This document shows, one piece after another, positions 12,338 through 37,667 of a stretch of 64,000 nt of DNA (position 1 is its first letter; each line of letters starts with the position of its first letter). The notes beneath the pieces are model-generated. The model had not been told where the DNA came from, did not search any database, and saw only the letters and a program-made list of their open reading frames with translations. The stretch is from contig DOSJ01000019.1 in NCBI GenBank assembly GCA_003514005.1, positions 22,868 to 86,867 on the forward strand, written 5' to 3'. Made by a program: the position numbers and the translations under genes. The stretch is from Candidatus Falkowbacteria bacterium. Lineage in GTDB: Bacteria; Patescibacteriota; Patescibacteriia; Patescibacteriales; UBA12075.

Positions 12338-12380
12338 AGGGTATAATTTTTAATTTGTAATATAATATACTTAAAAATCT

Positions 12381-12520
12381 TTGTCATTCCCGCGTAGGCG
12401 GGAATCTTGGTGTCAAAATAACAAAATATTTCTACTATAAAGTTTGTTATAAAAACACCTTTTTAAATTTCTTGTTTGTTTATTCTATTACCGAGATTCC
12501 CGCTTTCGCGGGAATGACAA
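12381..12520. mobile_element. MITE-like element, GTCATTCCCGCG hairpin-end family (copy A)
   Basis: Ends ttgtcattcccgcgtaggcgggaatc (12381-12406) and gattcccgctttcgcgggaatgacaa (12495-12520) are inverted. Each end is itself an 8-bp hairpin. Interior is homologous to copy B at 30779-30913. Confidence 0.7.
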
Positions 12521-12527
12521 AAGACAC

Positions 12528-12668
12528 TCAATTCTTATCCTTAATAATTTTTTGTAGCCTCTTCACCCCCGCCCCGCTCACCTTCATCTTTAACTTCTTT
12601 TTCTTAATTCTTTTTTCCACTTTTTTAATAATCCGATCTTCTTCATTGTCCAAATTTTGTTTATTCAT
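12528..12668 (-). CDS. candidate 46-aa Lys-rich small protein
   Basis: ATG 12668 to TGA 12530-12528: MNKQNLDNEEDRIIKKVEKRIKKKKLKMKVSGAGVKRLQKIIKDKN. Sits behind a good promoter; below the track size cut-off; no homology recognised. Confidence 0.3.
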   Translation of the reverse strand: MNKQNLDNEEDRIIKKVEKRIKKKKLKMKVSGAGVKRLQKIIKDKN

Positions 12669-12725: not shown

Positions 12726-13405
12726 TGAACAATCCCTTAAAACCCTGGTATAAAAAATGGTGGGGCGTATTGGCATTATTAGCGCTTTTGTTTTTTATAA
12801 GCATATTTTTTGCTTTTGTTTTTTTGGTTATCAATTCCCGTGATACTGCGCCTAGCTCTGGCATCAATCCTTTGTTAACGCAAAAAGTTCCGGCGCTGGC
12901 GATCGGTACGGAAAAAAACTATTGGCTCGGAAGCGCAAATCCAAAAATTACGATTGTCGAGTTTGGCGATTTTGCCTGTTCCTACTGTCAAAAATCGTTT
13001 TCCAAAATCCGAGAAATCAGCCAATTATACAAAAACGATATCAAATACATTTACCGCGACTATCCTGTCGTATCCGATTATTCCGCCAAGCTGGCCTTGG
13101 CCGCGCGCTGTGCCGGCGAACAAGGACTTTTTTGGATAATGCATGACAAGTTGTACATCAACCAAGGCATTAGTACGGATCAAGAAATATTAAATCATTT
13201 CAAACAAACCGGAGGCAATGAAGCAAAATTTTCCACCTGTTACGACGCAAACAAATATCTTCCCGAAATCGAAAAAGACTTGAGCGACGGACAATCTCTT
13301 AACATCACCGGCACGCCGACGTGGTTTGTGAATGGACAGAGGCTCGAGGGAGATGTGCCGTATGAGTATTTTATTAACCTAATTTCTAACATATTAGGTA
13401 CTTAG
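12725..13405 (+). CDS. DsbA/thioredoxin-fold thiol:disulfide oxidoreductase, membrane-anchored
   Basis: 226 aa with an N-terminal TM helix. CxxC active site in FGDFACSYCQ and a DsbA-like C-terminal part (ITGTPTWFVNG). Confidence 0.75.
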   Translation: MNNPLKPWYKKWWGVLALLALLFFISIFFAFVFLVINSRDTAPSSGINPLLTQKVPALAIGTEKNYWLGSANPKITIVEFGDFACSYCQKSFSKIREISQLYKNDIKYIYRDYPVVSDYSAKLALAARCAGEQGLFWIMHDKLYINQGISTDQEILNHFKQTGGNEAKFSTCYDANKYLPEIEKDLSDGQSLNITGTPTWFVNGQRLEGDVPYEYFINLISNILGT

Positions 13406-13488
13406 GTGCTTGGGTACTTAGGGGTTTGGTTTATTACAATTTTACCTCAACCCTAAGCACCCAAGCACCTAAGTACCTAAGTACCTAA
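13394..13488. repeat. intergenic hairpin, CCTAAGTA word family
   Basis: ttaggtacttaggtgcttgggtacttagggg vs ccctaagcacccaagcacctaagtacctaa: about 30 bp with 1 mismatch. Left arm contains the dsbA-like stop; right arm ends 4 nt before the porG ATG. Confidence 0.75.
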
Positions 13489-13491
13489 CAA

Positions 13492-14034
13492 ATGAAACAA
13501 ATTCGCATACACGGCCGCGGCGGCCAAGGCGTAGTTACGGCAGCGGAACTTATCGCCATCGCCGCATTTAACAACAACAAAGAAGCGCAGGCCTTTCCGT
13601 CTTTTGGCGTAGAGCGCACTGGCGCACCGATCGAGGCATTCGCGCGCATTGACGACAAACCGATTCGTACGCGCGAGCATGTATACCATCCGGATATTTT
13701 GATTGTCCAAGACGCTTCAGTCATGGCCGCTGTTGATGTTGCCAAGGGCTGTGATGAAAAAACAATCGTAATCATCAACACTTCCCTTTCCAAAGACGCG
13801 ATTAAGCTTAATTTACCAAAAGAAAATATTTTCCCGATCGATGCCACAAAAATTGCTTTGGAAATTCTTGGCAAAAATATCGTCAACACAATTATCCTCG
13901 GCGCCGTCGCCAAATCGACTAACCTTTTTACAATGGACGCTGTCAAAAAAGCCATCAAACAAAAGTTTGGCGGCAAGAGCCAGGAGTTGGTTGATAAGAA
14001 TATTAAGGCGGTGGAGCTGGCCTATAACATGTAA
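13492..14034 (+). CDS. porG: 2-oxoacid (pyruvate):ferredoxin oxidoreductase gamma subunit
   Basis: 180 aa. The N-terminus IRIHGRGGQGVVTAAELIA is typical of POR/VOR gamma subunits. Confidence 0.85.
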   Translation: MKQIRIHGRGGQGVVTAAELIAIAAFNNNKEAQAFPSFGVERTGAPIEAFARIDDKPIRTREHVYHPDILIVQDASVMAAVDVAKGCDEKTIVIINTSLSKDAIKLNLPKENIFPIDATKIALEILGKNIVNTIILGAVAKSTNLFTMDAVKKAIKQKFGGKSQELVDKNIKAVELAYNM

Positions 14035-14060
14035 ACCCTATTTTTGATTAATAGAACAAA

Positions 14061-14128
14061 GTTAATTAGTTGATTAGTTAATTAGGGTATAAATATTTAC
14101 ATCCTAATTAACTAATCAACTAATTAAC
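14061..14128. repeat. hairpin between porG and porD, TTAATTAG word family
   Basis: gttaattagttgattagttaattagg (14061-14086) is the exact reverse complement of cctaattaactaatcaactaattaac (14103-14128). Confidence 0.8.
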
Positions 14129-14144
14129 TAATTAACTAACAAAT

Positions 14145-14402
14145 ATGAACATAACCGCAAACCCCCAATCAACCCCAATCAACAAAACCGGCGGCTGGCG
14201 CACATACATCCCGGCAACCGACTATAACAAATGCATCGGCTGTGGCCGTTGTGCCAAAGTCTGCCCGGAAAACGCGATCAAAATGGTCGCAAAAAACGGT
14301 AAACAAATTCCGATTACAAATTTTGATTTCTGCAAAGGCTGCGGTCTGTGCGCGCTGGAGTGTCCGGTGAAGGCGATTGAGATGAAGCTTGATGTGAAAT
14401 AA
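14145..14402 (+). CDS. porD: 2-oxoacid:ferredoxin oxidoreductase delta subunit (2x[4Fe-4S] ferredoxin)
   Basis: 85 aa with two CxxCxxCxxxCP clusters (CIGCGRCAKVCP, CKGCGLCALECP). Confidence 0.85.
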   Translation: MNITANPQSTPINKTGGWRTYIPATDYNKCIGCGRCAKVCPENAIKMVAKNGKQIPITNFDFCKGCGLCALECPVKAIEMKLDVK

Positions 14403-14408
14403 AGCTGT

Positions 14409-14902
14409 CTTTTTTGTCATCTCGACCGAGCGAAGCGAGCGGAGAGATCTATAATACATCAATAAAGCACGCGCAATGTTCAATAAAAAAAGTTATAATT
14501 TCTATATTTACATTTTAAGCAATTACGACCGCAACTGTCTATACGTTGGATTTTGCAACGATATCGCCAGAAGAATTATCGAACACACACATAGCTTCGG
14601 ATGCGAATACTCAAAAAAGTACAAAACCTTTGATTTATTATATTATGAACATTATCAATATGTTAACGAAGCAATAGCCAGAGAGAAACAAATCAAAAGA
14701 TGGGGAAGAGATAAAAAAATAGCTTTAATAAAAACTAAAAATCCGGAATTAAAAAAATTAACCAAAAATTATTCAATGATTTTAGACTTTCTGAAAAAGA
14801 TATCTCTGAAATAGCTGATATTTTAAAAGAAAAATATTCAGCTAGGGATTAAAGTATTACAGATCTCTCCACTCGCTTCGCTCGGTCGAGATGACAAAAA
14901 AG
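14409..14902. mobile_element. GIY-YIG ORF bracketed by 42-bp terminal inverted repeats (element E)
   Basis: cttttttgtcatctcgaccgagcgaagcgagcggagagatct (14409-14450) matches the reverse complement of 14861-14902 at 41/42 positions. Inserted between porD and porA. Confidence 0.7.
14476..14814 (+). CDS. GIY-YIG nuclease family protein (small stand-alone URI/COG2827 type)
   Basis: 112 aa with NFYIYIL..LYVGFCNDIARRIIEH..YYE...AIAREKQIKRW.RDKK. About 45 percent identical by eye to ORF 16292-16594. Confidence 0.85.
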   Translation: MFNKKSYNFYIYILSNYDRNCLYVGFCNDIARRIIEHTHSFGCEYSKKYKTFDLLYYEHYQYVNEAIAREKQIKRWGRDKKIALIKTKNPELKKLTKNYSMILDFLKKISLK

Positions 14903-14950
14903 AGAAATAATTATTTTAAAATAATCATAATTCAATAAACAACAAATAAC

Positions 14951-16168
14951 ATGTCAACTAATAAATCTAATAGACAAATACTCGAGGGCTCACAGGCCAT
15001 CGCCCAACTAATCAATAACATCAAACCCGGCGTCGTATCCGCTTATCCAATCACTCCACAAACACATATCGTCGAAAACTTGGCAAAGTTCAAAGCCGAT
15101 GGCAAGGCGAAGTATGAATACGTCCGCGCCGAAAGCGAATTTGCTGCCGCTTCGATTGTTCTGGGTGCAAGCGCTACCGGTCTGCGTGTTTATACGGCCA
15201 CAAGCTCGCAAGGACTTTTGCTTATGAACGAAGTGGTATACAACATTGCCGGTATGCGTTTGCCTGTCGTTATGACAGTCGCAAACCGTGGCGTATCTGC
15301 GCCGATTACTATTTGGAACGACCACCAAGACGCTATGTCTGTTCGCGATGCCGGCTGGATTATGCTATTTGCCGAGAATCATCAGGAAGCGATTGAGCAA
15401 CATCTCTTAGCATACAAGATTGCGGAAAAGAAAAAAATTCCGGTCATGGTCAATATCGATGGTTTTGTTCTTACTCATACTTACGAAGGCGTGGAAGTGC
15501 CTTCATCAACAGAAATAAAAAAATTCTTACCTGACTATAAACCAAAAGCCGGTGAATATCTTGACACAGCACACCCCCGAACCTTTGGCGCCTTTGCCGC
15601 TCCGGCGCACTATATGGAGATTCGTCATGAGTTGCACGAGGACTTGCGCAATTGTCAATCGGAAATTTTGGAAGAATATGAAAGCTTAAAAAAACTGGTT
15701 CCAAACGCCATCAAACAAACGGAAAAAAACGCGCAGATAAATAATGGCTTGGTTGAATATTATGGACCAAAAAATCCCAAAATTGTTCTGGTCGCAATGG
15801 GTTCGCTAATCGGCACCATCAAAGACGCAGTTGACAAGCTCAATATCAAAAGCCATGTCAAACACTATGTCTCCCCCACCTCTGTCGGTGTTTTGAAAAT
15901 AAAAACCTTCCGTCCCTTCCCGGATAAAGCGATTGTAGATATTTTAAAAAACGCCAAATACTGCGCCGTTATCGAAAAGGCTGTTTCCCTTGGCGCTACC
16001 GACGGTCCTTTGGCTATAGATATTAAATCAGCCGCAAAAAACAGCATCAAAACCAAAATCCAAAGCTACGTTGTTGGCCTAGGTGGACGCGATATCACGC
16101 AGGACAGAATCGCAAGGATCGTTGTCGATGTGCAAAAAAAGGATGATCGGATGAAGTTTGTGGGATAA
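14951..16168 (+). CDS. porA: 2-oxoacid:ferredoxin oxidoreductase alpha subunit
   Basis: 405 aa. ILEGSQAIAQ..SAYPITPQT..ESEFAA..GA..TATSSQGLLLM is typical of POR alpha. Confidence 0.85.
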   Translation: MSTNKSNRQILEGSQAIAQLINNIKPGVVSAYPITPQTHIVENLAKFKADGKAKYEYVRAESEFAAASIVLGASATGLRVYTATSSQGLLLMNEVVYNIAGMRLPVVMTVANRGVSAPITIWNDHQDAMSVRDAGWIMLFAENHQEAIEQHLLAYKIAEKKKIPVMVNIDGFVLTHTYEGVEVPSSTEIKKFLPDYKPKAGEYLDTAHPRTFGAFAAPAHYMEIRHELHEDLRNCQSEILEEYESLKKLVPNAIKQTEKNAQINNGLVEYYGPKNPKIVLVAMGSLIGTIKDAVDKLNIKSHVKHYVSPTSVGVLKIKTFRPFPDKAIVDILKNAKYCAVIEKAVSLGATDGPLAIDIKSAAKNSIKTKIQSYVVGLGGRDITQDRIARIVVDVQKKDDRMKFVG

Positions 16169-16203
16169 TATACTTTTTACCCCAATGGAAAAAATATTTT
16201 CTT

Positions 16204-16707
16204 TTGTCATTTCGCAGCGAAGCGGAGAAATCCCTTATCCATGAATAATCCTCCTATTAGTTTTTTTAGCAAATACTAAAAAAACCATATTATGGCTACA
16301 AAGAAAGAATATAATTTTTATATCTACATATTGGCAAGCGACACAGGAACGTTATATATCGGTTTTACAAATAATCTTGAAAGACGAATCAAAGAACATA
16401 AAAGTGGAATAATAAAAGGATTCACTCAAAAATATGGTTGCAATAAATTAGTATATTATGAACATTATACTTATGTAAACAATACGCTTGAACGTGAAAA
16501 AGAATTGAAAAAATGGAATAGAAATAAAAAGCAAGATTTAATAAAATCAATGAATCCACACTGGAAAGATATTTCAATCGAATTGTTTACATAATTTTTT
16601 GTCATTCCGTAGCAAGATGAGAAAACCTTTAAACAAGAATTGCGTACAAAATGATCAATTCATTATCAACCGTTAAGGGATCTCTCCGCTTCGCTACGAG
16701 ATGACAA
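16204..16707. mobile_element. GIY-YIG ORF with 34-bp inverted ends plus nested miniature copy (element F)
   Basis: Left end ttgtcatttcgcagcgaagcggagaaatccctta (16204-16237) vs right end 16674-16707: 31/34 as reverse complement. An extra left-end-like copy lies at 16599-16631, just after the ORF stop. Confidence 0.65.
16292..16594 (+). CDS. GIY-YIG nuclease family protein (URI/COG2827 type)
   Basis: 100 aa with NFYIYILAS..GTLYIGFTNNLERRIKEHK..YYE...LEREKELKKWNRNKK..NPHWKD. Confidence 0.85.
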   Translation: MATKKEYNFYIYILASDTGTLYIGFTNNLERRIKEHKSGIIKGFTQKYGCNKLVYYEHYTYVNNTLEREKELKKWNRNKKQDLIKSMNPHWKDISIELFT

Positions 16708-16727
16708 AAACAATTACAGAATAAAAA

Positions 16728-17528
16728 ATGAAAACCAAACTCAAAAAACTAATCTCCCTAATCCTATTCACCCAGATTTTCCTCTGTATATTTTTGCTTT
16801 TCCCAAACCCATCAAACGCTGCCGATTCCTACACATTCAAAATCCCGATTCCCGGCTTTGAATCTGTTAAATTCGACGGCACAACCCGCCCGATTGCCGA
16901 ATTTATTCAAGCCGTTTACAAATACGCCATCGGCATCGTCGCCATCCTTGCCACAGTAGTAATAATGATCGGTGGCGTTGTCTGGATAACAGCAGCCGGC
17001 GACTCCGGCCGCATCGGCGAAGCTAAACAATATATTACCGGTGCCATGACCGGTTTGGTTTTAGCGCTTTGTTCATTTATGATATTGCAGACTGTGAATC
17101 CAGATTTGGTTACGTTTAAGCCGATTGGTGTAAAAACGGTAGACCCAATACCTTCCTCTTTATTATCAGACGACTCCTGTACTTCTCAATTTGGTACTTG
17201 GATTGGGGTATCAAACCAACATGACGAAAACGCAGCCAAAATCAATTGTAACTTAATTTGTGACAACAATTATAGTGAGTTAACTGAATACTCTTCTGGA
17301 TTTAAATATTGTTGTAAATGTGCTGTTTCATTAACTCAAAATCTAACTGGAAATCCTGATGACATTGGTTGTTGCGCATATTTTGACTTAACAAGCTTAA
17401 ACTGTTCTGGCCCTCATACGAATGTGACAAGACAATGGTGTAATGCAAATATACCTAATTCAAATTTTCAACCAGGCTTTAGCACAACGCTAACAACATG
17501 CGATTGTAATTTAATGAATTATAAATAA
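16728..17528 (+). CDS. TrbC/VirB2-like two-TM pilin-type protein with Cys-rich C-terminal domain
   Basis: 266 aa. Signal peptide, then a conserved hairpin module AIGIVAILATVVIMIGGVVWITAAGDSGRIGEAKQYITGA..VNPDLV (nt 16899-17132), then a 15-Cys tail. Family assignment is from memory of CPR T4SS-pilin-like proteins. Confidence 0.5.
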   Translation: MKTKLKKLISLILFTQIFLCIFLLFPNPSNAADSYTFKIPIPGFESVKFDGTTRPIAEFIQAVYKYAIGIVAILATVVIMIGGVVWITAAGDSGRIGEAKQYITGAMTGLVLALCSFMILQTVNPDLVTFKPIGVKTVDPIPSSLLSDDSCTSQFGTWIGVSNQHDENAAKINCNLICDNNYSELTEYSSGFKYCCKCAVSLTQNLTGNPDDIGCCAYFDLTSLNCSGPHTNVTRQWCNANIPNSNFQPGFSTTLTTCDCNLMNYK

Positions 17529-17530
17529 TT

Positions 17531-18553
17531 ATGTATAGAGTAATAAAATTAAATTTTATAATCTGTTTTATTTTTTTTGCCATTACTCCATTACTTGTTT
17601 CCGCCGAAGCCAATTGGACAATGCCTGACCCCAAAATACCTATTCCCGGCATGAAAGTTTTAAAAGATTTGCAGCCTGACTGCACTGAAACAGATTCAAA
17701 TGGTAAATCAATCTGCACCATGCCTTGGCTAAATGAATACATTGCCGGAATTTACAAATACGTTATCGGCATCGTAGCAATTCTCGCCACAATCGTAATG
17801 ATGATCGGTGGAGTAATTTGGATTACAGCCGCCGGCGACTCCGGGCGTATCGGCGAAGCCAAGCAATGGATAACCGGAGCGGTTACCGGCATGGTATTAG
17901 TTTTTTCTTCTTATACGATTCTATATTTTGTAAATCCGGATTTGGTGAAGTTAAAGCCGATTAAAGTGGAAAGAATTGTTAAAATGGAGCCGTTAAAACC
18001 CGCAAATATTTCTACAAATGCCTTTGTGAGCAATGCCTGCAAAGATACCGGAAGCAATAAAGTAATTTACTTTAACAATTATTCGGAAAAAACACCTATT
18101 CCAAGCGCATGCAGTGCGTACAGCGCAGAATTTGCAAAATATGGAGTTGACAAAAAAATATTGACTGCTATAGCTTCCCAGGAGTCGGGATGTAATCCAG
18201 GCTTAACAAGCTCGGCGGGCGCCTGTGGTATAATGCAATTGATGCCAGACACTGCCAAGATATATAATAAAGATGCTAGTTGCGAATGGTTAATACAGCA
18301 TCCTGAAGAAAGTATTAAAATTGCATCTTACTACATTATTGCAAATACTAATTTAAACACAAAAACATCTGATATTTTTGCTGGATATAATAGCGGTTAT
18401 GGAACCGGGGTAGTGAATGGGAAAGTCGGCGGTCTTGCCCCGAGTAGCGATTGCAAAGGATTTAAGGCATACGAATGCTGTATCAACCCCGGTGGACTAG
18501 TTGAAACACAAGATTATGTAATGAAAACTTTAGGGTATTATAATAGTCAATAA
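17531..18553 (+). CDS. TrbC/VirB2-like two-TM module fused to lytic transglycosylase (SLT) domain
   Basis: 340 aa. Paralogous N-terminal module (nt 17735-17968). C-terminal SLT motifs AIASQESGCNP, GIMQLMPDTA and AGYNSGYG. Confidence 0.65.
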   Translation: MYRVIKLNFIICFIFFAITPLLVSAEANWTMPDPKIPIPGMKVLKDLQPDCTETDSNGKSICTMPWLNEYIAGIYKYVIGIVAILATIVMMIGGVIWITAAGDSGRIGEAKQWITGAVTGMVLVFSSYTILYFVNPDLVKLKPIKVERIVKMEPLKPANISTNAFVSNACKDTGSNKVIYFNNYSEKTPIPSACSAYSAEFAKYGVDKKILTAIASQESGCNPGLTSSAGACGIMQLMPDTAKIYNKDASCEWLIQHPEESIKIASYYIIANTNLNTKTSDIFAGYNSGYGTGVVNGKVGGLAPSSDCKGFKAYECCINPGGLVETQDYVMKTLGYYNSQ

Positions 18554-18561
18554 AACACTTT

Positions 18562-18805
18562 ATGCCAAAAAAACTAAAACCAATCCACCCTGGAGAAATA
18601 TTAATGGAAGAGTTCTTGCTACCTGAATATCAGTCAATATCGTGTAGCAAAGGATATTAATGTTCCCGCGCGTCGAATTAACGAAATTGTACATGGAAAA
18701 AGAGCAATCAGCGCGGATACCGCTCTGCGACTTGGAAAATATTTTAAAGTTTCTCCGCAGTTCTGGCTAAATTTACAATCTCGCTATATAAATAGTGGCA
18801 CTTGA
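18562..18805 (+). pseudogene. frameshifted HigA-type (XRE HTH) antitoxin
   Basis: MPKKLKPIHPGEILMEEFLLP stops at 18660. The expected continuation ISQYRVAKDINVPARRINEIVHGKRAISADTALRLGKYFKVSPQFWLNLQSRY is intact in another frame up to TGA 18803-18805. No higB is adjacent. Confidence 0.7.
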
Positions 18806-18830
18806 CATTGTATTACAATTGTAATACAAT
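18802..18830 (+). promoter_or_regulatory. sigma70 promoter with overlapping 22-bp palindromic operator
   Basis: TTGACA (18802-18807), 17 nt, TACAAT (18825-18830). The spacer plus -10 is the perfect palindrome ttgtattacaa|ttgtaatacaa (18808-18829). Sits 27 nt upstream of the antitoxin ATG. Confidence 0.7.
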
Positions 18831-18857
18831 AATACCATAACTATTAACATTAAAATT

Positions 18858-19082
18858 ATGCGACAAGTATTAAGCATTTCAATGCCAGGACAACTAATAA
18901 GCAAGGTAAAAGAACGAATCGAAAACAGGGGTTTTAAATCTGTTAGCGATTATATCAAGTTCTTGATCAAAGAAGATGATGATTTTTTAACTGATGACGA
19001 GATATTAACGGCAGTGAAAGAAGCTGATCGTGATTACAAACTTGGTAAATTAAAAGTACTTAAATCATTAGATGACCTATAA
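18858..19082 (+). CDS. ribbon-helix-helix type antitoxin (RelB/ParD-like)
   Basis: 74 aa, acidic. Directly upstream (5-nt gap) of a RelE/YafQ-like toxin ORF, behind the palindromic operator. Confidence 0.55.
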   Translation: MRQVLSISMPGQLISKVKERIENRGFKSVSDYIKFLIKEDDDFLTDDEILTAVKEADRDYKLGKLKVLKSLDDL

Positions 19083-19087
19083 CAAGT

Positions 19088-19366
19088 ATGATAGTAGGAG
19101 AAATATTATATTCTAATACTTTTTGTAATTGCTACAAAAAAATATCTGTGGAATTGCAAAATATTACGAAAAAAAAAGTAGAAATTTTCAAAACCAACCC
19201 CCTGCATCCTTCACTTCGCCTTCATGAATTACATGGCAAATTGTCTGGCTTATGGTCCATTTCTATAAACACTAATTACAGAATTATTTTTAAAAGAAAA
19301 GAAAATGGTGATATTATTTTTGTAATAATCGGCAAACACGATACCTACAAAAATCTAAATAATTAA
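19088..19366 (+). CDS. RelE/YafQ-family mRNA interferase toxin
   Basis: 92 aa with NPLHPSLRLHELHGKLSGLWSISINTNYRIIF....GDIIFVIIGKHD, typical of RelE/YafQ toxins. Confidence 0.7.
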   Translation: MIVGEILYSNTFCNCYKKISVELQNITKKKVEIFKTNPLHPSLRLHELHGKLSGLWSISINTNYRIIFKRKENGDIIFVIIGKHDTYKNLNN

Positions 19367-19368
19367 AA

Positions 19369-19399
19369 CCTGGATTCCCGCCTCCGCGGGAATGACAAG
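19369..19399. repeat. solo hairpin end of the GTCATTCC MITE family
   Basis: cctggattcccgcctccgcgggaatgacaag closely matches the right end of copy D (37638-37667). No partner end nearby. Confidence 0.6.
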
Positions 19400-19403
19400 A
19401 TGA

Positions 19404-19622
19404 ATGATTTATTTTACAAAATACTCCGAACAAAAATTTGAAATCCTGAACAAGTACCAGGTGTTTTTTCGTAAGGAAGAGATTTGTGACGCGGTTTTAA
19501 ATCCGGACAAAATTTCAAAAAAAGGGAAATATTTGTCAGCGCGGAAAGACGGGATTAAGGTTGTTTATGATAAGAAGGCGGGTGTTATTCGCGTTATTAC
19601 TTTTTATCCAATTAAAATATAA
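19404..19622 (+). CDS. small DUF4258-like protein (putative toxin)
   Basis: 72 aa. Resembles the DUF4258 pattern (..NPDKISKKGKYLSARK...KVVYDKKAGVIRVITFYP) and is followed by a DUF2283-like ORF. Weak assignment. Confidence 0.4.
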   Translation: MIYFTKYSEQKFEILNKYQVFFRKEEICDAVLNPDKISKKGKYLSARKDGIKVVYDKKAGVIRVITFYPIKI

Positions 19623-19624
19623 TA

Positions 19625-19708
19625 CGAATACTACAAATAACATTCAAATACTACAAAAATTTTTCAATTCAACATTTTGTAGTATTTGAATATCATTTGT
19701 AGCATTTG
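19625..19708. repeat. intergenic hairpin, TACTACAAA word family
   Basis: cgaatactacaaataacattcaaatactacaaaa vs ttttgtagtatttgaatatcatttgtagcatt. The same words occur at 45563-45640 and 49455-49490. Confidence 0.7.
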
Positions 19709-19732
19709 AATTATAAGTTTTTACACAAAAAC

Positions 19733-19954
19733 ATGCTCTACGACCCCGAAGCCAACATAATATCCCTGCCAATCGGCAAAGGAAAGATTACTCATACGAG
19801 TGAATTCGGTAATTTTATTATCCACCTATCCGACGCGAAAAAACCGATACTGATCGAGATTTTAGATGCGTCAAAGTTTATGGGGCAGTTTGATAAGATT
19901 AAGAATGTTGGGGATATTAAAAAAATGTTACCGACAATCAACCAATTGAATTAA
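19733..19954 (+). CDS. DUF2283-like protein (putative antitoxin partner)
   Basis: MLYDPEANIISLPIGKGKI..IIHLSDAKKPILIEILDASKF fits DUF2283. ATG 19733 preferred; the track TTG start 19706 lies inside the hairpin. Confidence 0.6.
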   Translation: MLYDPEANIISLPIGKGKITHTSEFGNFIIHLSDAKKPILIEILDASKFMGQFDKIKNVGDIKKMLPTINQLN

Positions 19955-19970
19955 AATTTTTTTAAAAAAA

Positions 19971-20036
19971 GTTAATTAGTTAATTAGTGATTAGGAGCAT
20001 AATCCACTCGGCCTAATCACTAATTAACTAATCAAC
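19971..20036. repeat. hairpin upstream of porB, TTAATTAG word family
   Basis: gttaattagttaattagtgattagg vs cctaatcactaattaactaatcaac, a near-perfect 25-bp inverted repeat. Confidence 0.75.
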
Positions 20037-20050
20037 TAATAACATATTAT

Positions 20051-20995
20051 ATGCCAATAACCACAGAACAAAAAACAATCACAAAACCAAAACCCACCCC
20101 CTCCCTCTTCGCCGCCGGCCACCGGGGTTGTGCGGGATGCGGACAGATGCTGGCCGCGCGCACTGTTATCAATGCGCTAGGGACCAATACGATTATTGCG
20201 AACGCGACCGGGTGTTTGGAAGTTACCACCACGCCTTATCCGGAAAGCGCATGGGGTGTGCCGTGGATACATTCACTTTTTGAAAATCCGGCCGCGGTTG
20301 CGTCTGGAATATTGGCGGGACTTAAACAAAAAGGCAAGGACAAAAAAGTAAAAATCCTTGTACAGGGCGGCGACGGCGGTACTTTTGATATCGGTTTTGG
20401 GCTGATCAGCGGTATGTGGGAACGAGGCGAAAATATTCTTTATGTTTGCTACGACAATGAAGCCTACTCCAATACCGGCATGCAGGCATCAGGCGCAACA
20501 CCTTGGGCATCCAATACCACGACCACCCCGGCCGGAAGCGGAACAACGATAGACGCAATCGGCTCGCATCAAAGCAAAAAAGACATGATCGCGATCGCTT
20601 TGGCGCACGGTGTCAAATACGTCGCACAATGTACAACCGGCTACCTGGAAGACATCGAGGCCAAAGTAAAAAAAGCGGCAACAATCGAAGGTCCGTCATA
20701 TATCCAGATCCTTGCTCCCTGCATACCCGGCTGGCACATAAAACCGGACCAGGCCATGAGCCTAAGCCGTCTTGCCACCCAAACCGGCCTTTATCCCCTT
20801 TTGGAATATACTGACGGAGCGTTAACCAAAGTTATGCCGGTCCCAGCTAATACGCCGCGCGTCGAAGAATATCTAAAACCGCAAGGACGCTTTTCTCATC
20901 TATTCAAAGGCGACCACGGCAAAGAATTGATCGCGCAAGTACAGGCTTTGGCGGATGGGAATATTTTGAAGTATGGATTGAAAAAAGTGACTTAA
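20051..20995 (+). CDS. porB: 2-oxoacid:ferredoxin oxidoreductase beta subunit (TPP-binding)
   Basis: 314 aa with GHRGCAGCG, GGDGGTFDIGF and YVCYDNEAYSNTG, typical of POR beta. Confidence 0.85.
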   Translation: MPITTEQKTITKPKPTPSLFAAGHRGCAGCGQMLAARTVINALGTNTIIANATGCLEVTTTPYPESAWGVPWIHSLFENPAAVASGILAGLKQKGKDKKVKILVQGGDGGTFDIGFGLISGMWERGENILYVCYDNEAYSNTGMQASGATPWASNTTTTPAGSGTTIDAIGSHQSKKDMIAIALAHGVKYVAQCTTGYLEDIEAKVKKAATIEGPSYIQILAPCIPGWHIKPDQAMSLSRLATQTGLYPLLEYTDGALTKVMPVPANTPRVEEYLKPQGRFSHLFKGDHGKELIAQVQALADGNILKYGLKKVT

Positions 20996-21042
20996 GTTAA
21001 TTAGTAATTAGTTAATTAGGGAATAAAAAATAATCCTCTTTT

Positions 21043-21153
21043 TTGTCATCTCGCAGCGAAGCGGAGAGATCCCTTAACGATTAATTATATATAGATTATT
21101 TTATTTTTTGAACCATGTTTAAGAGATTCCTCCGCTTCGCTACGGAATGACAA
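21043..21153. mobile_element. ORF-less miniature of the GIY-YIG-element ends (element G)
   Basis: ttgtcatctcgcagcgaagcggagagatccctta (21043-21076) and taagagattcctccgcttcgctacggaatgacaa (21120-21153) are inverted (about 28/34), separated by 43 nt. Confidence 0.65.
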
Positions 21154-21170
21154 AAAAAGTGAAATAACAA

Positions 21171-30737: not shown

Positions 30738-30778
30738 AATTAAATTACAAATTTGAAATTTAAAAAGTATTTTTAACT

Positions 30779-30913
30779 TTGTCATTCCCGCGAAGGCGGG
30801 AATCTTGGTTAAAAAATAACAATATATTTTTCCGTTATGTAGTTTTAAAACATTTTATATTAATCTTATTTATCTATTTTAGCACCGAGATTCCCGCCTT
30901 CGCGGGAATGACA
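30779..30913. mobile_element. MITE-like element, GTCATTCCCGCG hairpin-end family (copy B)
   Basis: ttgtcattcccgcgaaggcgggaatc (30779-30804) and gattcccgccttcgcgggaatgaca (30889-30913). Interior aligns with copy A. Confidence 0.7.
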
Positions 30914-30938
30914 GAAAAAAAGTTGTCTCAATTTGTAA

Positions 30939-37361: not shown

Positions 37362-37513
37362 AATTAACAGGCAATATTTATATATTTATTATACCATTTT
37401 TCAATAAAAAAAAATAGCTTTTTGCAAAAACCATTTTTTTATATAAGTCTATTTACCTCAAAGTTTTCTTGCCTTTTTATAATTATTTGGTTTGTTATAC
37501 TGTTTATATTATT

Positions 37514-37667
37514 TTGTCATTCCTGACACACAATAGCCCCGCAGGGAAATAAATATTAAATGATCAGGAATCCAGGGGAAATAAATTTGAATATTTTTAA
37601 ACGTCAGAATGTTTAATAACGCATACGCCATTTTCACCTGGATTCCTGCCTTCGCAGGAATGACAAA
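37514..37667. mobile_element. MITE-like element, GTCATTCC family (copy D, left end disrupted)
   Basis: ttgtcattcctga...tcaggaatccagg on the left vs cctggattcctgccttcgcaggaatgacaa on the right (37638-37667). Confidence 0.55.

Follow-up and report, generated by a model that had tools for sequence, protein, structure and literature searches.

Slx1-like GIY-YIG nuclease genes within (T/C)GTC-tagged REPs: a probable counterpart of the REP-RAYT arrangement

Introduction

Two small GIY-YIG nuclease genes lie within the pyruvate:ferredoxin oxidoreductase (por) operon of a Candidatus Falkowbacteria bacterium, a member of the candidate phyla radiation (CPR)/Patescibacteria, and each is enclosed by inverted repeats that also occur elsewhere without a gene. 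The DNA considered here is a 64,000-nucleotide stretch of contig DOSJ01000019.1, and "the window" refers to the whole of it. Few repeats are as abundant in bacteria as repetitive extragenic palindromes (REPs), and to our knowledge only the GTAG class of REPs has a known partner enzyme, the REP-associated tyrosine transposase (RAYT). The locus therefore raises the question of whether a GIY-YIG nuclease can occupy the position that a RAYT occupies in other genomes. We find it probable that the cassette is a "REPtron" in which an Slx1-like GIY-YIG gene is set in (T/C)GTC-tagged REPs, with the GIY-YIG nuclease in the place of the RAYT and with REPs that are also found without a gene and in the manner of REPINs (REP doublets forming hairpins).

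Results

Two GIY-YIG genes and their flanking repeats

The genes, the arms that flank them and the related gene-less dimer are as follows (REP, repeat unit; ORF, open reading frame).

14408-14463, plus strand: left arm of cassette 1, inverted repeat with a 41/42 match; the arm is kept in locus L235
14476-14814, plus strand: GIY-YIG nuclease gene 1, 112 amino acids; Pfam PF01541, E 4.7e-14
14848-14903, minus strand: right arm of cassette 1, tag on the minus strand; the plus strand reads ATGACA at 14891-14896
16195-16249, plus strand: REP 5' of gene 2; tag 16205-16208, hairpin 16209-16231 (ATTTC...GAAAT)
16292-16594, plus strand: GIY-YIG nuclease gene 2, 100 amino acids; Pfam PF01541, E 2.3e-17; UPF0213 and Slx1 structural neighbours
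16596-16635, plus strand: degenerate REP, left half of the dimer 3' of gene 2; 79% identical to the right arm of the 21042-21154 dimer
16662-16716, minus strand: REP, right half of the dimer 3' of gene 2; partner of 16195-16249
21040-21156, no strand assigned: ORF-less head-to-head REP heterodimer after porB (dimer 21042-21154); arms ATCTC..GAGAT and ATTCC..GGAAT, each with its own stem

An earlier note on this DNA had assigned both ORFs to the GIY-YIG nucleases, and the PF01541 matches agree with that assignment. No further GIY-YIG genes were present in the 64-kb window. The inverted arms of cassette 1 extend over 56 nt with 93% identity, and those of cassette 2 over 55 nt with 80% identity; recounting the identities that had been given for the inverted ends returned the same values, 41/42 for cassette 1 and 31/34 for cassette 2. 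In the left arm of cassette 1 the TGTC tag (14415-14418) is followed by an imperfect, G.A-interrupted hairpin (14419-14448) and then by the conserved ATCTATAATACATCAAT. The description of these ends as long hairpins holds for the arm pairs but not for the single arms of the gene-bearing cassettes, which are weak and G.A-interrupted.

The ORF-less doublets that had been placed at 21043-21153 and, nested, at 16599-16707 were both recovered, and they are one dimer in opposite orientations. The nested doublet (16596-16710) is the heterodimer of 21042-21154 reversed, with a related spacer, and the left arm of the 21042-21154 dimer differs from the right arm of cassette 2 at 2 of 42 aligned positions. 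The arms of the supposed second pair of terminal inverted repeats are real, but they are more accurately read as a single REP 5' of gene 2 and one half of a complete dimer 3' of it. The orthologue of gene 2 in the relative L001 is flanked by complete dimers on both sides. The sequence TTTGTCAT occurs 18 times in the window, compared with 4.3 expected, and none of 100 shuffles reached 18.

A conserved TATAAT is found directly 3' of the left arm of cassette 1 (14451-14456 in the window, 441-446 in L235), at a distance of about 20-35 nt from the start codon. Scored as promoter elements, the ATGACA tips at 12514, 16701 and 21147 resemble outward -35 hexamers. Together, the TATAAT and the tips suggest possible promoter functions of the cassette ends.

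The repeats belong to a known REP superfamily

The window repeats belong to the (T/C)GTC-tagged REP superfamily (CGTC/TGTC-tagged REPs). CGTC-tagged REPs were defined by Di Nocera, De Gregorio and Rocco (BMC Genomics 2013, PMC3733652) as units with a CGTC, TGTC or CCTC tag, a stem of 8-9 bp beginning with AT, a loop of 4-5 nt and a CCA tail, mainly arranged as head-to-head dimers with the tags outside and 20-100 bp apart. Azospirillum lipoferum 4B was among the species used for that definition, and the superfamily was described as "apparently lacking a dedicated transposase" (PMC3733652); GIY-YIG genes were not considered in that paper and no dedicated enzyme was reported. The compact units of the window, as well as the Azospirillum and Sinorhizobium units, agree with the definition, apart from a variable 3' tail in the window. 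In contrast, the arms that flank the window genes are a longer version whose core (GAGCGAAGCGA-type) is interrupted by G.A mismatches. The compact relative has the form TGTC-ATTCCCGC-GNAG-GCGGGAAT (stem ATTCC(C/T)GC, 3' side GC(G/A)GGAAT). The remaining REPs of the window are listed below.

12380-12521, no strand assigned: ORF-less head-to-head dimer of compact TGTC REPs; stem ATTCCCGC, loops GTAG/GAAA
19369-19397, minus strand: single compact TGTC REP with a CCA tail; covariance-model score 42.5 bits
30778-30915, no strand assigned: ORF-less head-to-head dimer of compact TGTC REPs, of the dimer family of 12380-12521
37513-37667, no strand assigned: ORF-less head-to-head dimer; stem ATTCCTGC, left unit with a 41-nt loop insert

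The common spacer sequence identifies the dimers at 12380-12521 and 30778-30915 as copies of one dimer family. The left REP unit of the fourth feature (37515-37571) is interrupted by the 41-nt loop insertion (ATTCCTGA...TCAGGAAT). In total, the 64-kb window holds five REP dimers and one singleton, every one of them intergenic.

An unpaired TGTC tag stands directly 5' of the stem in every window unit; the corresponding tag is CGTC in Azospirillum and CCTC in Sinorhizobium. The units at 12382, 12491, 19369, 30780, 30885 and 37637 have the stem ATTCC(C/T)GC and GTAG, GAAA, GAAG or GGAG loops, and so fall within the 8-9 bp and 4-5 nt of the published class. The gene-flanking arms fall outside these limits, having a 5-bp outer stem (A-T first) and the interrupted core. 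The units at 19369 and 37637 end in a CCA tail, which most other lineages also have, and those at 12382, 12491, 30780 and 30885 end in CTT or CTC. Like the published CGTC REPs, the window dimers are head-to-head with the tags outside, multi-copy and intergenic.

A covariance model (R1) was built from 19 compact-type units of about 15 lineages. This model detected six compact window units at E values of 1e-8 to 5e-7, and it matched all six arms of cassette 1, cassette 2 and the 21042 dimer weakly (9-14 bits, E 0.3-4). We treat the gene-flanking arms and the 21042 dimer as a variant family that has the tag and outer stem in common with the compact units.

Searches of Rfam returned no known RNA family at the gathering score, the sub-threshold matches being to microRNA hairpin models. 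The compact dimer (window 12340-12560) gave sub-threshold Rfam matches to FtrB of Francisella (38 bits), WsnRNA46 of Wolbachia, BTnc060 of Bacteroides and CbSR9 of Coxiella, and some annotated bacterial small RNAs may be transcribed REP dimers of this class. The cassette ends are dispersed, and intrinsic terminators were rejected because the T-run is 5' of the hairpin and none of 11 terminator-like calls fell on any REP. A group I or group II intron or an IStron was also rejected, as no intron model in Rfam matched and the insertions are intergenic.

Tags bracket GIY-YIG genes across bacterial phyla

The association of gene and repeat was determined for 80 loci from a collection with one genome per species, in which 81 genes were counted. 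The loci were selected solely by protein homology and span Patescibacteria, Acidobacteriota, Chloroflexota, Bacteroidota, Alpha-, Gamma- and Deltaproteobacteria, Clostridia, Verrucomicrobiota, Planctomycetota and others. A TGTCA[TC] tag was present within 160 nt of 76 of the 81 homologous GIY-YIG genes, compared with 11-27 for eight control hexamers. Outward tags on both sides were found for 51 of the 81, compared with 0-3 for the same control hexamers. Thus, other GIY-YIG copies do carry such ends.

A detector requiring both tag and stem found 36/81 genes bracketed with the tags outward, compared with a single one of 304 control ORFs (120 amino acids or longer, from the same loci) and none when the tags were scrambled. 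The strongest inverted repeat linking the two 260-nt flanks of the gene exceeded the cross-locus control in 45 of 76 cases, and its arms nearly always began with TGTCA. The median distance between REP and gene is 28 nt on the start side and 21 nt on the end side. A strict perfect-stem detector, which found only 18/78, under-counts, since many lineages have G.A-interrupted stems or an A.C first pair. Tag-based counts with their controls were substituted for this detector; the tag-plus-stem detector also misses the G.A-interrupted lineages.

In the reverse test, a 29-nt pattern of the cassette 2 REP was scanned in metagenomes, which yielded at least 120 contigs (615 kb) picked by the REP alone. 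These contigs contained seven GIY-YIG genes, each of which had a REP at a distance of about 40-110 nt; no GIY-YIG gene was found away from a REP. A third and independent sample was drawn from a library of 1.84 billion proteins and consisted of the 150 top-ranking cluster representatives of the family. Where ORF calls had been extended, the extensions contained peptides translated from the tag plus stem in 22 of 40 N-terminal cases (3.9 expected) and in 19 of 48 C-terminal cases (3.2 expected).

Two cultured species illustrate the arrangement. In Azospirillum lipoferum 4B, AZOLI_RS22735 lies between sufB and sufC with a canonical CGTC-ATCCCCGC-GAAG-GCGGGGAT-CCA head-to-head dimer on each side. 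The GIY-YIG gene of Sinorhizobium meliloti has CCTC-tagged dimers as its flanks.

Many REP copies from soil and peat follow on one to three truncated copies in tandem (TTTGTCATTCCGCAGC and about 8 nt more), as in contigs L110, L111, L123, L125, L127, L129, L130, L136, L142, L152 and L163. The truncated copies resemble units without the 3' half of the hairpin and are a possible footprint of repeated processing or slippage. In L109, L122, L135, L138, L144, L165 and L168, a larger conserved inverted repeat (TAGAGCATTTTCGGAATTGCTATAGACC ... GGACTACACCATTACCGAAAATGCTCTAA) carries the REP in its loop, and the two form a composite element like a miniature inverted-repeat transposable element. In L090-L093, the GIY-YIG gene (protein P0048) is back-to-back with a gene for a 151-amino-acid PF01797 Y1 transposase (IS200/RAYT-like).

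The hairpin stems covary

Single arms beside the window genes consist of a 5-bp outer stem followed by a core with tandem G.A mismatches around GCGAAGC. Compact units fold clearly as DNA (z -3.2 to -4.8), and whole dimers reach z -8 to -12 as RNA (-8.3 for the 21042-21154 dimer). Within the window each arm keeps a self-consistent stem even where the two arms of a dimer differ in sequence (ATCTC/GAGAT, ATTTC/GAAAT, ATTCC/GGAAT).

Covariation was assessed in 19 units from different lineages that had been picked by tag and arm-to-arm similarity, not by self-complementarity. In this set 98.7% of the cells were paired, and 7 of the 8 stem pairs had changed on both sides (33 cells), with no one-sided changes of the G-U/G-T type in the eight pairs. 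No shuffle or slid register approached the observed pairing. In the metagenome pattern, two outer-stem positions had been left free on both sides and still covaried (T-A 112, C-G 14, mismatched 2); the Fisher value of 1e-16 is supportive and not a probability, as the copies are not independent events. Because wobble intermediates are absent, the constraint on the hairpin points to the DNA level, or to one that is strand-symmetric, rather than to a purely RNA element.

The cassettes are discrete and polymorphic units

The por genes that define the insertion sites are listed here.

13492-14034: porG
14145-14402: porD
14951-16168: porA
20051-20995: porB

The order of the operon is porG, porD, GIY-YIG gene 1, porA, GIY-YIG gene 2, two genes resembling those for type IV secretion system (T4SS) pilins and SLT transglycosylases, small toxin-antitoxin (TA)-like ORFs and porB; rpoC is convergent with the operon beyond porB. 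Both cassettes, which are about 490-510 bp in size, have the orientation of the operon.

Relatives with the same gene order (DUF2207, DsbA, porG, porD, porA, pilin, pilin/SLT, TA, porB, rpoC) lack both cassettes, hairpins included. The cassette-free gaps are 45 and about 70 bp in L088 (porA 88% identical), 36 and 74 bp in L007 (porA 82% identical) and 33 and 33 bp in L005/L006 (porA 81% identical), so that presence/absence polymorphism is observed among the relatives. Cassette 2 is retained in place in L001 (protein 94% identical), and cassette 1 is retained in the strain variant L234.

In L235, a homologue of gene 1 (70% identical) is found between glycosyltransferase and asparagine synthase genes. 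The DNA similarity between cassette 1 and L235 starts exactly at TTTGTCAT and stops exactly at ATGACAAA, and the flanks are unrelated. Neither of the two contexts of cassette 1 (the window and L235) has a visible target-site duplication, and the intergenic DNA of the relatives is too diverged for a base-exact insertion point. In Flavivirga (L026), the whole 508-bp unit is present three times in tandem at 98-100% identity, two of the copies with stop codons. Gene 2 and its L001 orthologue differ by 16 synonymous and 7 nonsynonymous codon changes, and the gene is under purifying selection.

The nucleases have a UPF0213/Slx1-like fold

Slx1 is a structure-specific endonuclease for branched and flap DNA. 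A profile of 29 family members matched only UPF0213 structures in PDB, 1zg2 (8.9e-11) and 1ywl (2.8e-8). The same two structures were Foldseek ranks 1-2 for an AlphaFold model with a pLDDT of 92.3, followed at ranks 3-10 by Slx1 with branched and 5'-flap DNA (6seh, 7cq2-4, 4xlg, 4xm5) and thereafter by UvrC. The group of 1zg2 and 1ywl was treated as the "prokaryotic Slx1 family" in 2006 (PMC1564403). Of the catalytic positions in alignment A1, Y22, R32, H36 and E69 are invariant and Y12 is near-invariant; the C-terminal Asn (N88) is also invariant. The protein is thus predicted, from profile and model, to have the fold of the UPF0213/Slx1-like structure-specific nucleases.

The family is single-domain and comprises 10,536 clusters at E <= 1e-10, with a median length of 123 amino acids including mis-called extensions. 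It is nearly absent from viral contigs, with 10 relatives in IMG/VR. A phage homing cassette was rejected on this basis and on that of marginal PHROG matches.

Gene 1 is frameshifted at an A7 run relative to its homologues (window 14756-14858) with the nuclease core intact, and its ancestral C-terminal tail (KLFNDFRLSEKDISEIADILKEKYSARD) is still legible in another frame. The strain variant L234 has a 6-nt in-frame deletion in gene 1 immediately before the catalytic Glu.

Other features of the locus

Between porA and porB, window positions 16728-19954 hold the T4SS-pilin-like, SLT transglycosylase and RelE/YafQ-type toxin-antitoxin genes. This intervening block is kept in the relatives L005, L006, L004 and L001. 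In L004 (1394-1678; porA 86% identical), a different ORF of 94 amino acids, NYN/LabA-like by eye, occupies the porA-pilin junction where the window has gene 2, and this junction seems to be favoured by small accessory genes.

Long AT-rich palindromes form the spacers 5' of porG, porD, ORF 19706 and porB and 3' of porB. They are composed of stop-codon-rich words (TTAATTAG..., GGTACTTAGG...CCTAAGTACC) and have no relation to the TGTC REPs; comparable word-rich spacers are present in the relative L006.

13394-13484: AT-rich palindromic spacer
14060-14129: AT-rich palindromic spacer
19625-19706: AT-rich palindromic spacer
19966-20040: AT-rich palindromic spacer
20996-21035: AT-rich palindromic spacer

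Discussion

A proposed role for the nuclease

The earlier note had suggested a REP/RAYT-like logic with a different nuclease. The association across phyla, the polymorphism and the dispersed ends support that suggestion, and it is sharpened by the assignment of the repeats to a published class with no known dedicated transposase. The functional link between enzyme and repeat is a putative one. Starting from the observed association, unit boundaries, presence/absence polymorphism, covariation, fold and purifying selection, a mechanism can be outlined. The nuclease would recognise the tag and hairpin, in single-stranded DNA or after extrusion from the duplex, and would nick at the tag, which is the single/double-strand junction. 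We propose a nick at this position because the closest characterised relative cuts single/double-strand junctions, where the conserved tag sits. Nicking would maintain or spread the REPs and the cassette, with REPs, dimers and the cassette being copied or lost when host repair, replication or recombination acts on the nicks. GIY-YIG enzymes are hydrolytic and form no covalent DNA intermediate, so that spread would have to use these host processes and not strand transfer.

A broader proposal is put forward tentatively. The UPF0213/COG2827 nucleases (>10,000 clusters at 50% identity) may be the missing enzymes of the CGTC/TGTC REPs, constituting a second, mechanistically distinct REP-nuclease partnership across most bacterial phyla, CPR included, in which a hydrolytic, structure-specific nuclease and not an HUH transposase would drive the spread of the repeats and of its own cassette of about 0.5 kb.

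Several observations weigh against these proposals. The enzyme-repeat link is drawn from sequence data, and binding, cleavage and mobilisation of the repeats by the nuclease are what we infer from it. About 95% of the REP copies have no gene nearby, and the metagenomic copies are mostly singletons, so that REP spread could be independent of the GIY-YIG gene. The compact REPs have no cognate gene inside the 64-kb window. The arrangement also differs by locus, being an inverted pair, a direct pair or full dimers on both sides. With nearest-neighbour folding, the gene-flanking arms gave z values of -0.9 to +0.4 as DNA or RNA, no better than shuffles, so the structural case for these arms rests on the covariation of the outer stem. 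A GIY-YIG nuclease alone is insufficient for integration. Finally, no recent jumping was seen, as identical proteins (P0048 and P0065) occurred in only one context each across the samples, and genes 1 and 2 of the window are only 47% identical. These last two observations indicate that movement of the cassette is rare, as it is for RAYTs.

Alternative explanations

GIY-YIG is a classical homing-endonuclease fold, and a homing-type selfish gene is the first alternative to consider. The REP or REP dimer would be its target, a cut gene-less dimer would be repaired from a gene-bearing copy through homology in the REP arms, and the REPs would be landing pads that the enzyme does not mobilise and that spread by other means. 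Gene-less dimers with identical arm types do exist, and the gene of L001 and that of Azospirillum have a complete dimer on either side and are not inside one; however, the empty por sites of the relatives are without any REP, and the boundary of the unit is at the REP tips rather than at the gene. The cassettes are inside operons (por, suf), like free-standing homing genes, and the proteins gave weak matches to group I intron and phage homing-endonuclease models, but these are single domains of about 100 amino acids without the DNA-binding module of I-TevI or the Seg enzymes. Copies in the same genome are divergent (47%), save for one tandem amplification, and viral contigs, with the 10 IMG/VR relatives, are nearly free of the family. 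We consider homing unlikely.

It is also improbable, and more so than homing, that the REPs are cis-acting structural or regulatory elements (an mRNA stabiliser or processing site, an insulator, an autoregulatory operator or an outward -35-like hexamer) on a horizontally moving cassette whose nuclease has an unrelated role in repair. Di Nocera et al. thought that REPs work largely as RNA elements downstream of genes (PMC3733652), whereas among the 33 compensatory cells of our set there were no one-sided changes, which argues for a DNA-level or strand-symmetric constraint. A regulatory role would fit the co-orientation of both cassettes with the por operon, the regular distance of the upstream REP from the start codon (median 28 nt), the conserved TATAAT after the left arm and the -35-like ATGACA tips, yet the ends have no terminator architecture. 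Such a role would leave unexplained why the GIY-YIG family specifically is bracketed (control ORFs 1/304) and why there are hundreds of gene-less copies.

Coincidence, by which REPs and small accessory genes would gather in permissive intergenic insertion hot spots, is strongly disfavoured: a different small ORF does occur at the porA-pilin junction of L004 and other palindromes do occur in the por spacers, but the enrichment is very large, orientation- and distance-specific and spread over unrelated phyla, all seven GIY-YIG genes of the REP-selected contigs abut a REP, and gene and arms are conserved jointly as one unit.

Novelty and significance

Full-text literature searches found no paper linking GIY-YIG/UPF0213 nucleases with REPs; subscription-only papers were outside the search, and a prior description is possible. 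The REP class and the nuclease family are both known, and what is new is the proposed REP-nuclease partnership, with a new class of enzyme on a class of repeats without a partner. The GIY-YIG nuclease is a concrete candidate enzyme for the CGTC/TGTC REPs, and culturable hosts exist (Azospirillum, Sinorhizobium, flavobacteria). If the partnership is real, a function would be given to UPF0213, the very large family of bacterial Slx1 relatives whose nucleases are annotated as "hypothetical". As no covalent intermediate is formed, the partnership would also represent a route of DNA mobility or repeat maintenance outside the current classifications of transposons, and the cassette of about 0.5 kb would be among the smallest known autonomous mobile units. 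For annotation, many database proteins of the family have spurious extensions translated from the flanking repeats.

Comparison with known systems

The window proteins have the domain, the fold and the minimal single-domain size (about 90-110 amino acids) of UPF0213/COG2827 and Slx1. Prokaryotic UPF0213 proteins are regarded as vertically inherited housekeeping nucleases, with no link to repeats described. The eukaryotic Slx1, which acts on branched and flap DNA, differs in requiring Slx4 and in having a RING domain, and the subfamily described here is distinguished by its invariant C-terminal Asn (N88).

Homing endonucleases such as I-TevI and the free-standing Seg enzymes resemble the present system in the catalytic domain and in being small, selfish-looking genes between operon genes. 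In contrast to them, the window proteins have no DNA-binding extension, belong to a family that is rare in phage contigs, have repeats of their own and form units bounded by the tips of those repeats. Elements of the IS200/IS605 type (IS, insertion sequence) are similar in their hairpin-defined ends, the lack of a visible target-site duplication and small size. However, their ends are not inverted repeats and are acted on in one strand by a Y1 HUH enzyme, whereas the ends described here are inverted and accompany an unrelated enzyme.

The closest likeness is to the REP/REPIN-RAYT systems ("REPtrons"). In both, a nuclease gene lies between short tagged palindromes with the tags outward, an unpaired 4-nt tag is 5' of the stem, and the palindromes also occur without the gene as singletons and inverted dimers that are copied as units with their spacer. 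In both, the gene is under purifying selection, and the low copy number and stable position of RAYT genes may also apply here. The gene described here is in orthologous position in L001 and L234, but it is missing from relatives at 81-88% porA identity and has another context in L235. The two systems differ in enzyme, tag and distribution. A RAYT is an HUH Y1 transposase (PF01797), whereas both window proteins match PF01541 GIY-YIG only; the RAYT-class tag is GTAG, whereas the tag here is TGTC or CGTC; and the distribution here includes CPR/Patescibacteria, Acidobacteriota, Chloroflexota, Bacteroidota, Clostridia and more.

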